From an uncultured archaeon (GTDB taxonomy: Archaea > Asgardarchaeota > Lokiarchaeia > Sigyniarchaeales > SOKP01), in the NCBI GenBank assembly GCA_964583985.1, contig CAZOYD010000033.1, forward strand, positions 1 to 36,777: a stretch of DNA of 36,777 bases, in the 5' to 3' direction. A program made the position numbers and the translations under genes. The notes under the pieces were generated by a model, which was given only the letters and a program-made list of their open reading frames with translations, was not told where the DNA came from and ran no database searches. Shown in pieces: positions 2,575 to 32,778 of this stretch (positions within the stretch are counted from its first letter, which is position 1; each line of letters starts with the position of its first letter).

Positions 2575-3834
2575 ATGAAAAAAGTAGAATTATTAGCTCC
2601 AGCTAAAAATCTCAAGGCTATTAAGGCAGCATCAAAATACGCGGATTCGGTGTATTTTGGGATCGAAAAATTTAACATGAGAATGCGATCGGAAAATATT
2701 GCTTTAGAAAATTTAGCTGAGATCGTAAAATTTTGCCATCACGAGGATTTGAAAGCTTACTTGGCCACTAACATCCTAATATACGACAATGAAATTTCGT
2801 ATTTACGCACTATTTTAGAAAAAGCAAAAGAAGTTGAAATTGATGCGGTTATTATTCACGATTTAGCTGCGTTGGAAATTGCTAAACAAATTGGATTGCC
2901 TTTTCACATCTCAACCCAATGCAATGTATCAAATTCTCTTTCTGCGAATTTTTATGAAACTCTAGGGGCACAAAGAATTATTTTAGCACGAGAGTTATCT
3001 CTTGAGAAAATTAAGGAAATAAAGAGAAATTTATCAAAAGCTGAAATTGAAGTATTTATACATGGTGCAATGTGTACATCCGTGAGTGGACGTTGTTATT
3101 TTTCCCAAGATATCTGTGGAACTGAAGAAAAATCCGCAAATAAGGGTAATTGTGTTCAACCTTGCAGGAGACGTTGGTGGGTTCGTGAAGAATCGGGAAC
3201 CGAATATATTTATGACGGAACGCGATTCATGAATTCAAGAGATTTATGCACCATCGCCTATATTCCCGAATTAATTGACGCAAACGTGGATGCATTCAAA
3301 ATAGAAGGACGCATGAGACACCCCCATTATGTCGAAACTGTATCAAGAGTATACCGAGAAGCGATTGAAGCTTATTATGATGGAACTTTTTCTCAAAAGA
3401 AAGCCGGTAGCTGGGTTACTGAATTAAAAAAGGTCTACAACCGCGGATTCACCCCGGGATTTTATTTCAAGAGGATGACTGAAGAAGATCATCAACAAAA
3501 ATCACCTTCAAATTTATCTCATTATCGATATATTAAAATTGGAAAAGTTAAATCTTATATACCTGAGAAAAAAATCGCCCGAATCTCTATAGATAATGGT
3601 TACCTTTCCGATAACGACGATATTATTATAATGAGTAAAAAATCTGACACTTATTTACATCAATATGCGAGAGACATATTTCATGATGGGAAAAAAATCA
3701 ATAAAACACCCCGTGGTACAAAAAAGGATAATATTCTGATTGATTTAATAGTCAATGAGCCTGTAATAGAAAATGTAGATAACGTATATATTTTTACAGA
3801 TAAAACCTATAAGACGAAATCATATTCCTTTTAA
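2575..3834 (+). CDS. U32 'peptidase' family Fe-S protein (TrhP/RlhA-like RNA hydroxylase)
   Basis: ELLAPA, HISTQ, LARELS, EVFIHGAMC-x6-C...C-x3-CR, KIEGRMR and YNRGF motifs. Confidence 0.88.
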   Translation: MKKVELLAPAKNLKAIKAASKYADSVYFGIEKFNMRMRSENIALENLAEIVKFCHHEDLKAYLATNILIYDNEISYLRTILEKAKEVEIDAVIIHDLAALEIAKQIGLPFHISTQCNVSNSLSANFYETLGAQRIILARELSLEKIKEIKRNLSKAEIEVFIHGAMCTSVSGRCYFSQDICGTEEKSANKGNCVQPCRRRWWVREESGTEYIYDGTRFMNSRDLCTIAYIPELIDANVDAFKIEGRMRHPHYVETVSRVYREAIEAYYDGTFSQKKAGSWVTELKKVYNRGFTPGFYFKRMTEEDHQQKSPSNLSHYRYIKIGKVKSYIPEKKIARISIDNGYLSDNDDIIIMSKKSDTYLHQYARDIFHDGKKINKTPRGTKKDNILIDLIVNEPVIENVDNVYIFTDKTYKTKSYSF

Positions 3835-3940
3835 AATGATTTTTATTATGCTCTTAATATCAAGCAATCTCTTGACGGTTTAATATTAATTCAAGCATGA
3901 CTTTTTATTATTTATAATCAAAAAGTAAGAGAGATCTTGA

Positions 3941-4858
3941 ATGGAAAGAAAAAATAAACAGATTGTAGAATCGGTTCCAAATTATAGTGAAGGAATAGAT
4001 AGAGAAAAAGTCGAACAAATTGTAAATGAAATAAAAAATACACCCGAAACAAGGATAGTGGATGTGCAATTTGATTCAAATTATAATCGGGCAGTAATAA
4101 CTTTTGTAGGCACCCCAGAAGCAGTATTTAAAGCAAATATAGCTGCTGCGAAAAAGGCAATAAATTTAATTGATATGAATAAGCATAAGGGTCAGCACCC
4201 TCGTATTGGGGCAATTGATGTTGTTCCTTTTGTTCCTGCTCAAAATATCTCATTAGAAGAATGTGTAGAATTATCTATCAAGTTTGCAGAAGCGATGGCT
4301 GAAGAAAATATTCCTGTTTATCTATATGAAGCATCCGCTCGTAAAATGGAAAGAATTAATATTGATAACATCCGAAAAGGAGAATTTGAGGGTTTAAAGG
4401 AAGCAATTAAATCAGATCCGGATCGTAAACCCGATTTTGGTCCATCAAAGCTTCATCCAACGGCAGGAGCTATCATCACAGGAGCACGATACCCATTAAT
4501 TAGTTTCAATATTAACTTAGGAACATCAGATGTTAGAATTGCTAAAAAAGTGGCAAAAGCTATTCATCTACGTTCAGGGGGTTTAGTAAATGTAAAAGCA
4601 ATGGGAACTATATTGGAAGGAAGAGATTGCGTTCAAGTAGGAATTAGCAATGTTAATTTTAAAAAAACCCCTTTATATCGCCAGATGGAAATGGTAAGAT
4701 TTGAAGCTGCAAGGTATGGAGTACAAATAGTTGGTACTGAATTAATCGGAGTATTACCATTAGATGCGGTGTTGAATTCATTAGATTACTACTTGCAACT
4801 TGAAAAACCCGATAAACTTGATAGAAAGCATTTATTAGAAGATTATTTTGATTTTTAA
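3941..4858 (+). CDS. ftcD: glutamate formimidoyltransferase (formiminotransferase domain only)
   Basis: ESVPNYSEG, HKGQHPRIGAIDVVPFVP, IRKGEFEGL, PDFGP..HPTAGA; convergent with hutUHI. Confidence 0.9.
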   Translation: MERKNKQIVESVPNYSEGIDREKVEQIVNEIKNTPETRIVDVQFDSNYNRAVITFVGTPEAVFKANIAAAKKAINLIDMNKHKGQHPRIGAIDVVPFVPAQNISLEECVELSIKFAEAMAEENIPVYLYEASARKMERINIDNIRKGEFEGLKEAIKSDPDRKPDFGPSKLHPTAGAIITGARYPLISFNINLGTSDVRIAKKVAKAIHLRSGGLVNVKAMGTILEGRDCVQVGISNVNFKKTPLYRQMEMVRFEAARYGVQIVGTELIGVLPLDAVLNSLDYYLQLEKPDKLDRKHLLEDYFDF

Positions 4859-27159: not shown

Positions 27160-27594
27160 ATGATTGACGAAGAAGACGATGATGAAATCTTAAAAAAAAG
27201 TAGATCACTCAAGAAGATTTTGAAAAACGTGGCATTAATCGCATTAATAATTGTCGGAGCGCTTTTTATATACTTGGGGGGTACAGCTCAAATGACAAAT
27301 TTCTTTATTGGATTCACCTTGATTTGCATTGGTTCAACTTTGATTCAAATCCAAAAAAAAGAAGAAGAACCTACGAGACAGACTTTATCGATTTTAAAAT
27401 GTGATAAATGCGAAATTACAAAAGTGAGAAATTATGAACCCGGTGATTTTGTTTTTAAAATCGTAGATTCCTGTGAAAAATGCGATGAGGCAATGAAAAT
27501 CAATCAAATCTACAGCGTTAAATTAAAAAAATCCACCGCAAAAAAACAGGCTAAGGAAGTTACCTTAAAAAATAAAACTCAAGCAAAAACTTAA
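27160..27594 (+). CDS. small 2-TM protein with C-terminal zinc ribbon
   Basis: Two hydrophobic helices then CDKC...RNYEPGDFVFK...CEKC. Confidence 0.75.
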   Translation: MIDEEDDDEILKKSRSLKKILKNVALIALIIVGALFIYLGGTAQMTNFFIGFTLICIGSTLIQIQKKEEEPTRQTLSILKCDKCEITKVRNYEPGDFVFKIVDSCEKCDEAMKINQIYSVKLKKSTAKKQAKEVTLKNKTQAKT

Positions 27595-27606
27595 ACCCTT
27601 CCTCAA

Positions 27607-28068
27607 ATGAGAAAAGGTGTTTCTAAAATTTTAAATAAAGTTGGAATAGGCGGAACTTTCGATCACTTGCATGATGGTCATAAATCATTAATTATGATTG
27701 CATTATCATTCTCCAAGCATGTTGTAATTGGGTTAACAAGTGATAAGCTCCTCATAAAGAAGAAATTTCATTCAAAAATTCAGCCCTACGATAAGAGATT
27801 TGAATCCTTAAAATCATACATTCTTGAAATATCAGATTTTTCTAAAGTAGAGATAATAAAGTTAGAGGATCCTTATGGTCCTCCAATAAATGAAGAAGAT
27901 TATGAAGGAATTATAGTCAGCCAAGAAACTTATGAAGGAGCCTTAAAGATCAATCAGATCAGAGAAAAGAACGGTTTTAAACCGTTAATTATAATTGTTA
28001 TTCCTTTAATTCGCGATTCTAAGAAAAATAAAATTAGCTCCACGTCTATTAGAGCAACTTTAGAGTAG
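27607..28068 (+). CDS. coaD: phosphopantetheine adenylyltransferase (archaeal/eukaryote type)
   Basis: GGTFDHLHDGH, IGLTSD, DPYGP, IVS.ET, IN.IR, KISSTSIR. Confidence 0.92.
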   Translation: MRKGVSKILNKVGIGGTFDHLHDGHKSLIMIALSFSKHVVIGLTSDKLLIKKKFHSKIQPYDKRFESLKSYILEISDFSKVEIIKLEDPYGPPINEEDYEGIIVSQETYEGALKINQIREKNGFKPLIIIVIPLIRDSKKNKISSTSIRATLE

Positions 28069-28111
28069 TAAACTTTTTTAATTTCCATTTCTACAAATAT
28101 ATTATAGATAT

Positions 28112-28225
28112 ATGAATGCTTGGCTGATCATGAATCATAGAATTTTGAATATAGCTTTATTGAGGAGTAGTTTATTCAAACAAGCTTCATTTATTTTCAG
28201 CTTCTTTAATCCGCCAAGGGAATAA
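28112..28225 (+). CDS. putative Phe-rich leader peptide (37 aa; 31 aa from ATG 28130)
   Basis: Translated by hand: MNAWLIMNHRILNIALLRSSLFKQASFIFSFFNPPRE*; five Phe in 11 codons, upstream of pheS-pheT-pheA. Confidence 0.4.
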   Translation: MNAWLIMNHRILNIALLRSSLFKQASFIFSFFNPPRE

Positions 28226-28285
28226 TTCCAATATGATTTTTGTTTCCTTGGCTGCGGATTGTAATCTTTTTATTAAGGAAAATCC
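28208..28285 (+). promoter_or_regulatory. GC-rich hairpin with alternative pairing partner and U-tract (attenuator-like or ncRNA)
   Basis: AATCCGCCAAGGGAA (28208-28222) pairs with TTTCCTTGGCTGCGGATT (28243-28260); the latter can instead pair with AAGGAAA/AATCC (28275-28285); T5 at 28267-28271. Confidence 0.55.
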
Positions 28286-28425
28286 AAATTATCTTAGATT
28301 AATCATAAAATATATTCTCTAATTCGAGATAGACGTATTTCAAGCAAATTTGTCCACAAAAGATTTAAATAGGTTAAAAATTTAAATTTATATACTAAAT
28401 AGTATTAAATTTTGGATAGAGAAAT

Positions 28426-29967
28426 ATGAAGATTATACTTCGGAAACAAGTTATCGATATTTTCAAAATTTTACGAGATAGAAAAGGCACGATCATTGCA
28501 GCAGATTTAGCTAATGACTTGAATGTAGATTATGTTGTCTTAATGTCTGCGATTAATGATTTAATCTCATATAAGTTAGCAGGTTTCAAGGAAGAAGAAA
28601 TCAATCATATATCACTAAATAAAGAGGGAATGAAATATCTAAAAACAGGACTGCCTGAACGTCAATTGCTTGAAATATTGATTCAGCAAGATATAAAAGA
28701 AATCCCATTAGATGAATTTATTAAGTTATCAAAAATGGAGAGATCTTTATTCTACATAGGACTTTCAAATTTAAAACAAAATAAATGGATTGCTCAAAGT
28801 AAAGCAAGTGGAGAGAGTAAAATCTTTTTAACTGCCGAAGAATTTCCAAAAACTGAAATTGAACAATTTCTAACTATCTTCAATAAAAAAAAAGTGTTAA
28901 ATTATTCAGAATTATCTCCAGATGATTTAGCTAATATAGATATTTTAAATAAGCGTAAATTGATACATAAAACACAAAAAACTCAAAGAATCCTATATAT
29001 TACAGAGAAAGGCAAGAAGCTTGATCTTGATGAAATAGAAGAATTACAGCAAGTGAGCAAGATAACTTCAGAGATGTTAAGTACGGGATCTTGGAAAGAC
29101 ATCGAATTGAAACCATTTGATGTTACTAAACCAGGACCATTATTAAAAGCAGGAAAAATACATCCAATAATTAATTTAATTAATGAAATTCGTGAAGTAT
29201 TTCTTTCAATGGGTTTCACCGAAATACGAGGTCCGATCGTGGAAAGTGCTTTTTTCAATTTTGATGCGTTATATCAACCACAAGACCATCCAGCTCGAGA
29301 ATTACACGATACTTTTTATCTTAACAATCCAAAGATAACTAAATTACCAGATAAGGAACTAGTATTAGCAGTCAAAGATACTCACGAGAAAGGAGGAGAT
29401 AGTGGTTCAATAGGATGGAGATACGAATGGGATGAAGATATTGCCAAAAAAGCTCTCTTGAGGACTCACACCACCGCCACAACCGTCCGGAAGTTAGCAC
29501 AATATTATCTCGAAACTGATAAAAAACCAATTAAAGTATTTTCTGTCGATCGGGTCTTTCGAAATGAAAAAGTAGATAAATCGCATTTAGCAGAATTTAC
29601 TCAAATTGAAGGAATTGTCATAGATGATAATGTAAACTTATGCGACTTAATTGGTTTGCTTTCAGAATTTTATCGAAAATTAGGATTTAAAAAGATCATC
29701 ACGCGACCAGGATTCTTTCCATATACAGAACCAAGCATGGAAGTCTCGGTGTATTACGATAAATTAGGCGAATGGTTGGAAATGGGAGGATCGGGAATAT
29801 TTAGACCTGAAGTCACATATCCTTTCGGGGTTAAAGAACCAACAAGGGTTTTAGCATGGGGTCAAGGTCTAGAACGGATCGCAATGTTATATTATGATCG
29901 AAAAGATATTAGAGATTTTTATATAAATCCAATTAAATGGTTAAGACAACAATCTTATCATAAATGA
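28426..29967 (+). CDS. pheS: phenylalanyl-tRNA synthetase alpha subunit (archaeal/eukaryote type)
   Basis: N-terminal GLPE winged-helix region, NFDAL.QPQDHPARE..DTF, LRTHTT, VFRNE.VD..HLAEF.Q, FPYTEPS, GIFRPE, WG.GLER. Confidence 0.97.
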   Translation: MKIILRKQVIDIFKILRDRKGTIIAADLANDLNVDYVVLMSAINDLISYKLAGFKEEEINHISLNKEGMKYLKTGLPERQLLEILIQQDIKEIPLDEFIKLSKMERSLFYIGLSNLKQNKWIAQSKASGESKIFLTAEEFPKTEIEQFLTIFNKKKVLNYSELSPDDLANIDILNKRKLIHKTQKTQRILYITEKGKKLDLDEIEELQQVSKITSEMLSTGSWKDIELKPFDVTKPGPLLKAGKIHPIINLINEIREVFLSMGFTEIRGPIVESAFFNFDALYQPQDHPARELHDTFYLNNPKITKLPDKELVLAVKDTHEKGGDSGSIGWRYEWDEDIAKKALLRTHTTATTVRKLAQYYLETDKKPIKVFSVDRVFRNEKVDKSHLAEFTQIEGIVIDDNVNLCDLIGLLSEFYRKLGFKKIITRPGFFPYTEPSMEVSVYYDKLGEWLEMGGSGIFRPEVTYPFGVKEPTRVLAWGQGLERIAMLYYDRKDIRDFYINPIKWLRQQSYHK

Positions 29968-29977
29968 GGGAAATAAA

Positions 29978-31654
29978 ATGCCAACAATTGAATTGCATAT
30001 TGATAGATTAGAGCGGTTAGTAGGTAAAAAATTAAACATAAAGGAATTACAGTATGATTTGCAGTGGATAAGTCTAGATTTAGAAGATATTAACGAAGAA
30101 GAGCGGACCATTAAGGTGGAATATAATCCAAATAGACCAGATTTTTCCAGCCCTGAAGGAATCGCTAGAGCTCTAAGAGGGTACTACGAGATTGAATTAG
30201 GAATTCCCACATTTAAGCTTACTCCTGGAAGTATTATCTTGAAGGTTGATCCGAGCGTTAAAGAAGTAAGACCATATATTGTATGTGGTGTTGTTCGAAA
30301 TATTGATTTGGATGAAGATGAAGTCGCCACGCTCATGACCATTCAAGAACATCTTCATTGGGCAGTAGGGAGAGATCGAAAGAAAGTTGCGATAGGAGTT
30401 CATGATTTGGACAAAGTTATCCCGCCTTATAGATATACTGCTGTAAAACCCGATTCTGTAAGTTTTTCTCCTTTACATGGAGATGGATATCCGATGAATC
30501 TCGAAGAGATTTTGCTTCTTCATGAAAAAGGAATAGAATATGCTAAGATCTTGGAAGGGAAAAAACTCTACCCAATTATATTCGATAATAACGATGAGGT
30601 GTTATCTTTTCCACCAATTATCAATGGAGAATTAACAACTGTCACCGAAGCAACCAAGAATTTATTCTTAGATCTTACTGGAACTGATTTTCAAGCTGTT
30701 AATTTGGCATTAAATATATTAGCAACAACATTAGCAGATATGGGAGCAGAAATTGAAACTGTAACAGTTCAATATGAAGGAGGAAAAGATGTAATCACAC
30801 CTAACTTTACTCCGAAAAAATGGGAAGTGAAAATAGATTATATCAATAGTGTTTGCGGTTTAAAATTATCCGATGAAGACATGATTAAATGCTTTCAAAA
30901 AGTCAGGCTAAACGCAAATAAATCAAAACGAAAAGGTTATTTAGAGATATGGGTACCTTCTTATCGAGGAGATATCATGCACCCCATTGATTTTACTGAG
31001 GAATGTGCAATAGGTTATGGATACATAAATTTACCACTAACAATACATGATGGAGGGATGGGAGAATATCATCCTTTGCAGGATTTTTCAAACCGAATTC
31101 GTAAGATAATGATAGGTGCTGGATATTTAGAAGTAGTAAATTTCATTTTATCAAACTCAGAAAAACAATACAATTACATGAATCAAGAGAAGATAGAGGA
31201 AAACTTGGTACAGATACTCAATCCTGTTTCACAGGAATTTGATACGACACGAACAACTCTTTTACCTAATATCATGGACACTCTACGCTTGAATCGTTCC
31301 GAAGAAAAACCTATTAGAATTTTTGAAGTAGGTGATGTCATCGAATTAGCACCTGAAGAAGAAACTGGAGCAAGAAGAGAAGTTCATCTTACAGGAGTAT
31401 CATACCATAAGGATGCAGATTTTACAGAAGTAAGATCCGTAGTTGATTATATTATCACAACACTCAATCTTCAAGAGAATTATGACGTTAAACCGAGTTC
31501 TAATCCTACTTATATAAATGGGCGATATGGAGAAATTTATATCAATGGTAAGAAGATTGGTGAGATTGGAGAAATACATCCAAAAGTTCTTTTAAATTTC
31601 AAATTAGAATTTCCGGCTTCTGCATTTGAAATAAATTTAGAAAAAATTTTATAA
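29978..31654 (+). CDS. pheT: phenylalanyl-tRNA synthetase beta subunit (archaeal type)
   Basis: [23 protein letters not shown]...[33 protein letters not shown]. Confidence 0.96.
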
Positions 31655-31686
31655 TTTTATAAATTATTTTATTCGAGTTAATTATA

Positions 31687-32778
31687 TTGAATCAAGATGG
31701 AAAAGATTTAGAAAATCTCAGAAAAGAGATTGATGAAATTGATGACCAAATAATAGATCTTCTAAATAAAAGGGGATTGGTCGCAATTAAAGTTGGAAAT
31801 CTCAAGAAAGCGTTAAACATTGATGTTTCTCAGCCATATCGTGAAAAAGAGATCATCGATAGGATTAAAAAAAAGAAAACCATGTTTAAAGAATCGAGTA
31901 TTGAAGCTATATGGAAAGAATTAATTAGCGCTAGTAAAGTTATACAAGGGACCATTTCAAAAATAGGGTATCTCGGTCCAATAGGCACATTTACACATCA
32001 AGCTGCATTAGAATATTTCCCTAAAGCAGGTTCTGAGTTCATTCCTGTCAAAGATTTAATCGAGATATTCGATAATATTGAAAAAGGGATTTTTGAATAT
32101 GGGGTCGTTCCCATTGAGAATACACTTCAAGGAACGGTACGGGAAACTCTCGATTTATTAATTGATAGAAATCTATTTATATTTGGTGAAATTGAATTAC
32201 GAATTGTCCAAAATTTAATTTCATTAGAAGGAGCTACAATGAATAGCATACAAAATATATTTTCTCACCCCCAAGCTTTTTCTCAAACTCGTTCTTGGAT
32301 TAAAGCAAATTTACCCAATGCAAAACTGATAGATGTCAGTTCTACAGCAGAAGCTATACGAAGGGTGAGGAAACTAAATGATCCCACCTATGCTGCAATT
32401 GGAACGGAATTTGCCAGTAGCATTTATGGGTTAGTTGTTGCTAATCCCATGATTGAAGATGAAACTGCCAACTTTACCCGATTTTTGATAATTTCAAAAA
32501 AGGAAAACCCTATAAAAGAAGGAAAGATAAAAACTTCTATTGTATTTGTAACCAAGCATGAACCAGGTGCATTATACTGGGTTTTAAAGGTTTTTTCAGA
32601 TGCACATATTAATCTATCTAAAATAGAATCAAGACCCTTTAAGAAAGTTCGGTGGGAATACATATTTTTCGTAGATTTTGAGGGTAATAAAGAGGACGGA
32701 AATGTCAAAGAAGCACTTCAATTAATTGAAACGAAAGTTCTTTGGCAAAAAATCCTTGGATCATATCCAGCAAATTAA
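31687..32778 (+). CDS. pheA: bifunctional chorismate mutase/prephenate dehydratase (P-protein)
   Basis: AroQ 'LR.EID.ID..I..LL.KR', YLGP.GTF, VPIEN, SHPQA..Q, N.TRF, ACT 'INLSKIESRP'; TTG start. Confidence 0.94.
   Translation: MNQDGKDLENLRKEIDEIDDQIIDLLNKRGLVAIKVGNLKKALNIDVSQPYREKEIIDRIKKKKTMFKESSIEAIWKELISASKVIQGTISKIGYLGPIGTFTHQAALEYFPKAGSEFIPVKDLIEIFDNIEKGIFEYGVVPIENTLQGTVRETLDLLIDRNLFIFGEIELRIVQNLISLEGATMNSIQNIFSHPQAFSQTRSWIKANLPNAKLIDVSSTAEAIRRVRKLNDPTYAAIGTEFASSIYGLVVANPMIEDETANFTRFLIISKKENPIKEGKIKTSIVFVTKHEPGALYWVLKVFSDAHINLSKIESRPFKKVRWEYIFFVDFEGNKEDGNVKEALQLIETKVLWQKILGSYPAN

Follow-up and report, generated by a model that had tools for sequence, protein, structure and literature searches.

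We incline, though only slightly, to the view that a leader module in front of the pheS-pheT-pheA operon of an uncultured Lokiarchaeia archaeon gauges the supply of phenylalanine (Phe) through the translating ribosome. The module lies in the 357-nt gap upstream of pheS in the window, by which we mean the whole 36,777-nt stretch of contig CAZOYD010000033.1 that was analyzed. It consists of a short open reading frame (sORF) ending in a cluster of Phe codons and of two RNA helices, denoted P1 and P2, at whose junction the cluster is placed. The three genes downstream (28426-32778), for phenylalanyl-tRNA synthetase (PheRS) and for a fused chorismate mutase/prephenate dehydratase, are presumed to be the regulated genes. 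A preliminary description of this DNA, made without database searches, had proposed an attenuator here, and the sORF, the Phe codons, the hairpin that we call P2, the U-tract at 28267-28271 and the flanking genes were all recovered where it had placed them.

The reading frame of the sORF is conserved. Among 46 loci, a set made non-redundant at 90% identity, the frame was open for at least 26 codons in every case, and the other two frames reached 23 codons in only 13 and 2 loci, respectively. A start codon was present in 45 of the 46 loci (ATG in 26, TTG in 17, and GTG in 2), mostly 26-29 codons ahead of a Pro codon near the end of the frame. A closer comparison within the genus covered 22 genomes, whose gaps before pheS measured ~360 nt and aligned in blocks. 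In 21 of these genomes, no in-frame stop interrupted the 29-32 codons of the sORF, and each of the other two frames contained two to three stops per genome. ATG or TTG stood 29, 31 or 32 codons before the stop in 20 of the 21; the remaining genome had ATT at the aligned start site and TTG two codons downstream. The window has in-frame ATGs at both 28112 and 28130, either of which had been named as the possible start. Only the one at 28130 is conserved, with a stop intervening after the position of the former in the closest relatives. The exact peptide had no match in a collection of 15 billion proteins. A continuous frame or a frameshift leading from the Phe codons into pheS was also considered and rejected, as no long frame is open across 28226-28425.

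Conservation of the encoded peptide is confined to its end. The N-terminal two thirds (~17 codons) vary freely, with equal entropy at all three codon positions and no periodicity, and the C-terminus is kept as S-F-x-F-x-F-F-[IN]-x-P-R-[ED]-stop. The position of the stop is fixed and its identity changes among TAA, TGA and TAG. Our search pattern combined the hairpin with the last codons of the sORF, and in the six codons that it left free the fraction of Phe was 0.48 over the 46 loci; the value was 0.03 among the N-terminal codons and 0.15-0.20 when the other frames were read. By position, Phe was found in 59%, 48%, 83% and 85% of sequences, with exchange between TTT and TTC and with third-position changes that were nearly all U/C. 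The Phe-clustered sORF with synonymous exchange that the preliminary description hoped to find in relatives is present, with its last codons and stop in the 5' arm of the hairpin. In the window, a further Phe codon of the sORF (TTC 28175) lies outside the cluster. These patterns indicate that the sORF is evidently translated, as far as conservation can tell, and that its product matters only at the Phe-rich end.

The preliminary description had cautioned that T-rich DNA yields Phe codons by chance, and the caution was well founded. The genome of the window (32% GC) has 209 upstream sORFs with at least five identical residues in nine codons, of which 37 are Phe-rich. Among 605 looser candidates in this genome, the pheS sORF ranked second by hairpin energy at the stop codon. 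The idea that T-rich intergenic DNA produced both the Phe codons and the hairpin by accident draws on this background. It is refuted by the fact that frame, codons, both helices and position are conserved throughout the family, next to a spacer that has diverged beyond alignment, and we give it almost no credence; because it is conserved across the family, the sORF stands far beyond chance.

Helix P2 holds the last five sense codons and the stop of the sORF in its 5' arm. Its core pairs 28213-28225 with 28240-28252 (GCCAAGGGA with UCCCUUGGC, followed by a near-invariant UGCGG), and its outer stem pairs 28207-28212 with 28256-28261. The predicted fold had an energy of -23.5 kcal/mol (z = -2.9), and none of 200 shuffled sequences folded as well. 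The minus strand of the hairpin folded much more poorly (-14.9 kcal/mol, z = -0.7), and the structure is therefore that of the plus-strand RNA. Pairing was retained in 95.8% of cases in the core and in 93.9% in the outer stem, where it was maintained via C/U exchange opposite G. One pair appeared as G-C, G-U and A-U, with compensatory G-C to A-U changes, and was changed on both sides in 5 of 38 sequences. In a scan of the order, 12 genomes had a changed P2 5' arm, and all 12 had a matching 3' arm without any A.C mismatch. These wobble and compensatory changes fit plus-strand RNA only.

Helix P1, which the preliminary description had not seen, joins a strand directly upstream of the sORF start to the codons just ahead of the Phe cluster and to its first Phe codon. 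Cognate P1 duplexes had a mean energy of -12.8 kcal/mol, compared with -9.4 kcal/mol when each strand was given a partner from another species, and none of 5000 permutations reached the cognate value, a result that was obtained again on repetition. On a plain MAFFT alignment, 75% of P1 cells were paired, and 6 of the 12 pairs were changed on both sides. When P1 and P2 were taken together, 85.8% of all cells of the plain alignment paired, compared with 36-53% when the partners were slid. The RNA from 28104 to 28272 of the window folded exactly as P1 plus P2 (-41.6 kcal/mol, z = -2.9), and none of 200 shuffles was as good. The last two Phe codons sit in the 10-nt single-stranded linker that joins P1 to the P2 core. 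Since the P1 5' strand covaries, it must be transcribed; it lies 8-24 nt upstream of ATG 28130, so the sORF is not leaderless, and the stretch near 28100, which had been suggested as its TATA box, does not have that role. Covarying stems had been anticipated for the hairpin and for an alternative hairpin formed by its 3' arm. Covariation was found for P2, and for P1 in addition, and was absent from the alternative pairing.

Both arms of the P2 core and the UGCGG behind them are nearly invariant, which goes beyond the needs of a plain hairpin, and the helices are joined by a single-stranded U-rich linker reminiscent of Sm-type binding sites. These two features would be accounted for by a protein-binding RNA operator or a non-coding RNA, bound for example by PheRS or another regulator and carrying an incidental reading frame. 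Such an element would leave unexplained why all 46 loci keep the frame open through the otherwise free P1 loop, with its start at a fixed distance, when the other frames contain several stops. Nor would it explain a stop that keeps its place and changes its identity, or Phe codons whose third-position changes are nearly all U/C. A search with cmscan of positions 27500-29000, with E values up to 10, matched no Rfam family, including Phe_leader (RF01859) and the T-box, and no tRNA was predicted in the leader region. We therefore regard an RNA operator with an incidental frame as very unlikely. An origin as a repeat or mobile element was also rejected, as other matches in the genome were weak, fell only in the AT-rich downstream spacer and the promoter part, and never covered the sORF or the hairpin.

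The leader is restricted to one family and travels with pheS. In the scan of the order, the exact pattern of hairpin and sORF end was found in 82 of 153 genomes, all of them in the family of the window, where it occurred in 10 of 13 genera. It occurred once in each of them, save for a single genome in which a near-identical second copy lay on another contig. The three other families of the order had the pattern in none of 19 genomes, and there the upstream gene coaD abuts pheS. A reversed pattern, used as a control, gave no matches. We also scanned one genome per species over 185,579 species and obtained 68 matches, 66 of which had the sORF and hairpin. Of these, 65 were labeled Asgard (Promethearchaeota) or "uncultured archaeon"; the remaining one was labeled as a Nanopelagicaceae bacterium and carried the same sORF as one of the relatives (L030), together with pheS and coaD. 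The two other matches (Clostridiaceae and Desulfocapsaceae) had neither the sORF nor pheS and were dismissed as chance. Wherever the contig extended far enough, pheS followed 194-226 nt downstream of the motif (133 nt in one case), even where a different gene stood upstream. The leader is strictly linked to pheS-pheT-pheA at a fixed distance in more than 80 genomes.

A counterpart of the Phe leader was found in the same genome, in front of a gene for isoleucyl-tRNA synthetase (IleRS). On the minus strand of another contig (C29), an Ile-rich sORF of 24 codons (12382-12308) precedes ileS (12189-9322) by 118 nt and ends in F-I-E-I-I-S-E-I-I-I-R, with six Ile in the last ten codons. The product of this ileS is an isoleucine-tRNA ligase of the MupA/B-like type. 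By chance, an Ile-rich sORF stands before approximately 3% of the genes that have free space upstream, and the Ile case counts because it is conserved: the sORF is kept in the three relatives that carry this ileS (loci L115-L118). Its leader can form two covarying, mutually exclusive (crossing) helices, GGAUGUGG with CCACAUCC and AUGAAAC with GUUUCAU, with compensatory changes, and a TATA box stands ~28 nt before the AUG. No conserved promoter block was found between the Ile sORF and ileS in the window's genome and the three relatives. The genus has two kinds of IleRS, one of 955 aa (in 4 of 24 genomes searched) and one of ~1060 aa (35% identical), and one relative has both. This points to the ileS with the Ile leader being an acquired or alternative gene. 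In the window's genome, no Leu-rich counterpart was seen before leuS.

The region between P2 and pheS very probably contains a promoter for pheS itself. An archaeal promoter-like block with a transcription factor B recognition element (BRE) and a TATA box is near-invariant in all loci. The TATA box starts at -62 from the ATG of pheS, and TATA boxes of this genome peak at -75 to -51 (the main peak) and at -40 to -26. The same extended BRE/TATA motif occurs at ~20 other sites of the genome, and the 3' half of the block resembles the promoter of a ribosomal-protein gene. The likeness of the block to a site on contig C5 was followed up and set aside, as that site is merely a generic promoter of a ribosomal-protein gene. 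The preliminary description had credited pheS with a TATA-like box of its own and had located it at 28387-28394, which turned out to be the second element, the strongly conserved one being at 28356-28371.

Upstream of this promoter lies block d, which was kept in 37 of the 46 loci, begins at a fixed 45 nt before the TATA box and has no covarying RNA partner. Many relatives have an inverted copy, ATTAGAG, after the pheS TATA box. Block d is possibly a transcription-factor site of the pheS promoter. The spacer between P2 and block d is fixed in length, and its sequence has diverged beyond alignment while the leader was conserved. No signal of self-folding was found in the spacer (mean z = +0.18), and a second sORF in it was rejected, as each of the six frames had several stops per locus. 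At the other end of the gap, the A-rich stretch with its T6-A box is retained where the upstream gene differs and lies ~30 nt ahead of the first P1 base. We take it as the putative BRE/TATA of the leader transcript, which would then start near 28103-28106; it may also end coaD transcription.

The layout with promoter-like boxes ahead of both the leader and pheS, and with a spacer of fixed length and unconserved sequence dividing two units, could also belong to a self-contained small gene. Such a gene, read from its own promoter into an RNA of ~160-170 nt that stops at the U-tract behind P2, would give a stable small RNA, a peptide of 29-32 residues, or both, acting in trans or in some other role, and pheS would be transcribed solely from its own BRE/TATA. 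A two-hairpin RNA with a 3' hairpin followed by a U-run has a typical small-RNA shape. However, this explanation leaves unaccounted for the conserved Phe codons beside genes for PheRS and prephenate dehydratase, the constant linkage to pheS at a fixed distance, and the Ile-rich counterpart before ileS with no conserved promoter between them. The N-terminal two thirds of the peptide are, moreover, unconstrained. We consider a separate small gene rather unlikely, though it deserves to be kept in mind.

The preliminary description had favored an attenuator of the classical bacterial type, in which P2 and the U5 tract form an intrinsic terminator and a stalled ribosome frees the P2 3' arm to pair with 28273-28285, looping out the U-tract. 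Some observations suit it. With the P2 5' arm masked, the lowest-energy fold in the window does pair 28244-28251 with 28273-28280. P2 is followed by an enrichment of U-runs: five or more consecutive T were found within 30 nt past it in 23 of the 46 loci, and in 14 of them the run began 1-3 nt after the stem, as in an intrinsic terminator, with an otherwise variable position. However, the alternative pairing of the window was no better than in shuffled sequences (z = +0.4), and not even the closest relatives have retained it. Over the 46 loci, the P2 3' arm, released by masking of the 5' arm and folded together with the next 80 nt, likewise did not surpass shuffles (mean z = -0.37). In a further test, eight anchored segments were taken in every pairwise combination, and the duplex energy of cognate strands was set against that of strands from different species. 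P1 alone stood out; the P2 3' arm gave p = 0.22 with the spacer and p = 0.10 with block d, and the P1 5' strand had no covarying partner downstream. The antiterminator would, in addition, lie past the U-tract and could not form before the polymerase gets there. Judging from the size of its footprint, a ribosome at the stop would mask the P2 5' arm, so that termination would not occur in Phe-replete cells either. Finally, the canonical, family-wide pheS promoter lies downstream of the hairpin, which speaks against any simple attenuator with a single promoter. A classical terminator/antiterminator switch therefore seems to us improbable.

For the ribosome-read Phe gauge that we prefer, the following course of events is what we infer. 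A short RNA would start near 28104 and fold into P1 (28106-28196) and P2 (28207-28261). A ribosome would begin the sORF within the P1 loop, pass the P1 3' strand, cross four to six Phe codons at the P1/P2 junction and end translation at the stop inside the P2 5' arm. When charged tRNA-Phe is scarce, ribosomes would dwell on the Phe codons. As a ribosome occupies ~12-15 nt in front of its A site, one that pauses on the first Phe codons (28190-28198) would open P1 and leave the P2 core free, and one that has reached the final two (28202-28207) or the stop would melt P2. Where the ribosome stands would thus determine how the RNA is folded when RNA polymerase passes the U-rich stretch behind P2, and the fold would in turn set the share of leader transcripts that run into pheS-pheT-pheA, adding to transcription from the BRE/TATA of pheS itself.

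Several points weigh against a Phe gauge of this kind. With a canonical, conserved BRE/TATA between P2 and pheS, pheS need not use the leader promoter at all. No conserved antiterminator/terminator pairing was detected for any strand, in a test whose sensitivity is limited in AU-rich RNA. The position of the U-tract varies, and to our knowledge archaeal termination does not require hairpins. A protein that binds a specific sequence could likewise account for the near-invariance of both P2 arms. Phe-rich frames arise commonly by chance in this AT-rich genome, and the case rests on conservation. The sign of the regulation, moreover, is not derivable from sequence. By analogy with segment 2:3 of trpL, P2 may be an "on" structure rather than a terminator.

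The positions of the leader elements and neighboring genes are collected in Table 1. The gene coaD is a mere neighbor and lies outside the leader element; in several relatives, another gene stands upstream and the leader still stays with pheS. The pheA gene of the operon is the sole prephenate dehydratase gene found in the window's genome, and a chorismate synthase gene is present elsewhere in it. Neither 3-deoxy-D-arabino-heptulosonate 7-phosphate (DAHP) synthase type I (PF00793) nor anthranilate synthase (PF00425) was found in this genome, which is rated 100% complete. The organism may lack tryptophan synthesis and may have another way into the shikimate pathway. As these two genes were not found, there was none in front of which an aromatic or Trp leader could be looked for.

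Table 1 Elements of the pheS leader region and adjacent genes in the window
Feature	Position	Strand	Description
coaD	27607-28068	+	Archaeal-type phosphopantetheine adenylyltransferase (CTP_transf_like); Pfam PF01467; NCBIfam PRK00777, 159.5 bits against a cut-off of 104
Gap with leader	28069-28425	+	357 nt, between the phosphopantetheine adenylyltransferase gene and pheS
A-rich stretch and T6-A box	28070-28081	+	Family consensus AAAATTTTTTAG; most conserved block upstream of the sORF in the 46 loci
Helix P1, 5' strand	28106-28122	+	Directly upstream of the sORF start; family consensus AAUGAAU.CUUGAG
Leader sORF	28130-28225	+	31 codons and TAA (28223-28225); conserved open frame and C-terminus
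Helix P1, 3' strand	28182-28196	+	Codons just ahead of the Phe cluster and first Phe codon of the cluster
Phe-codon cluster	28190-28207	+	TTT 28190, TTC 28196, TTC 28202, TTT 28205
Helix P2	28207-28261	+	Outer stem, core and 3-nt bulge; 5' arm made of the last five sense codons and the stop
Spacer	28262-28314	+	Fixed length (62-64 nt from P2 end to block d); sequence unconserved
U5 tract	28267-28271	+	6 nt past the P2 stem end (9 nt past the conserved GCGG); candidate 3' end of the leader RNA or termination site
Block d	28315-28355	+	CTAATTC (28319-28325) and, ~30 nt later, a word like it immediately ahead of the BRE
pheS promoter-like BRE/TATA	28356-28371	+	TATA TTTAAATA at 28364-28371; family consensus CGAAAGATTTAAATA; near-invariant in all loci
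Second TATA-like or initiator-region box	28387-28394	+	Part of the promoter-like block 28356-28394
pheS	28426-29967	+	Pfam, NCBIfam
pheT	29978-31654	+	Pfam, NCBIfam
pheA	31687-32778	+	Fused chorismate mutase/prephenate dehydratase/ACT (CM_2, PDT and ACT); Pfam, NCBIfam

Other observations concerned tRNAs and their synthetases in the genome of the window. A putative leuS frame of 948 aa on the minus strand of contig C64 (~2700-4661) contains one in-frame TAG, and the open reading frame from its first ATG codes for only 151 aa. On contig C40, a putative valS is immediately preceded by a tRNA-like sequence (~-150 to -60 from the ATG) that probably contains an intron. ARAGORN, with introns allowed, predicted 22 tRNAs in the whole assembly and no tRNA-Phe.

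Leader-peptide attenuation is a textbook form of regulation that requires coupled transcription and translation. The preliminary description knew of no established case in Asgard archaea, and in the literature that we searched it was described in bacteria only, with no archaeal case found. Taking the Phe and Ile leaders together, we give about an even chance to the broader proposition that this family of Asgard archaea measures amino acids with leader peptides read by the ribosome, Phe for pheS-pheT-pheA and Ile for ileS, through RNA refolding coupled to termination or read-through. If true, this would be the first leader-peptide attenuation described in Archaea, with an evolutionary origin separate from that in bacteria and no classical terminator/antiterminator pair. 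Archaea, among them the closest prokaryotic relatives of eukaryotes, would then exploit the same coupling as bacteria, and aminoacyl-tRNA synthetases would be subject to a new layer of control. The leaders would also offer a natural reporter for ribosome-polymerase coupling and for the effects of RNA structure and ribosomes on archaeal termination. The Ile counterpart suggests that the principle was reused.

In Escherichia coli, pheM-pheST and pheL-pheA are controlled by leader-peptide transcription attenuators (Phe_leader, RF01859 in Rfam). Like them, the archaeal locus has a short leader, evidently translated, in which Phe codons cluster toward the end; it stands before genes for PheRS and chorismate mutase/prephenate dehydratase, with the stop at the foot of an RNA helix and with charged tRNA-Phe, read by the ribosome, as the presumed signal. 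In the archaeal locus, the PheRS and pheA genes are joined in one operon. Unlike pheM and pheL, the leader does not match RF01859, has a longer sORF (29-33 codons) whose N-terminus is free, showed no detectable terminator/antiterminator pair, and is separated from pheS by a canonical archaeal promoter. Archaeal RNA polymerase terminates at U-tracts without needing hairpins. Another parallel comes from mycobacteria, where a bioRxiv report (10.1101/834739) describes cysteine-responsive polycysteine sORFs as ribosome-dependent attenuators of downstream genes. Those sORFs resemble the archaeal ones as short frames rich in a single residue that head operons for that amino acid, and differ in being bacterial and leaderless. 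The layout with two promoters, in which a leader unit precedes a canonical pheS promoter, suggests that the design differs from that in bacteria.

The order of regulatory codons, stop and next helix is that of trpL of E. coli. As in trpL, a ribosome at the regulatory codons would leave the next helix free, and one at the stop would mask its 5' arm. In contrast to trpL, no conserved fourth segment or terminator hairpin was found, and P1 pairs the regulatory codons with the 5' leader instead of with segment 2. In the TnaC-tnaA system, factor-dependent termination is blocked by a ribosome held at the stop, and it is by way of the nascent peptide that the free amino acid is sensed; TnaC, unlike the proposed Phe leader, does not read codons. 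By analogy, a factor-dependent version of the Phe leader may be allowed by its invariant P-R-[ED]-stop end and by the RNA beyond, which is not translated and on which the archaeal termination factor FttA/aCPSF1 would act in place of Rho.

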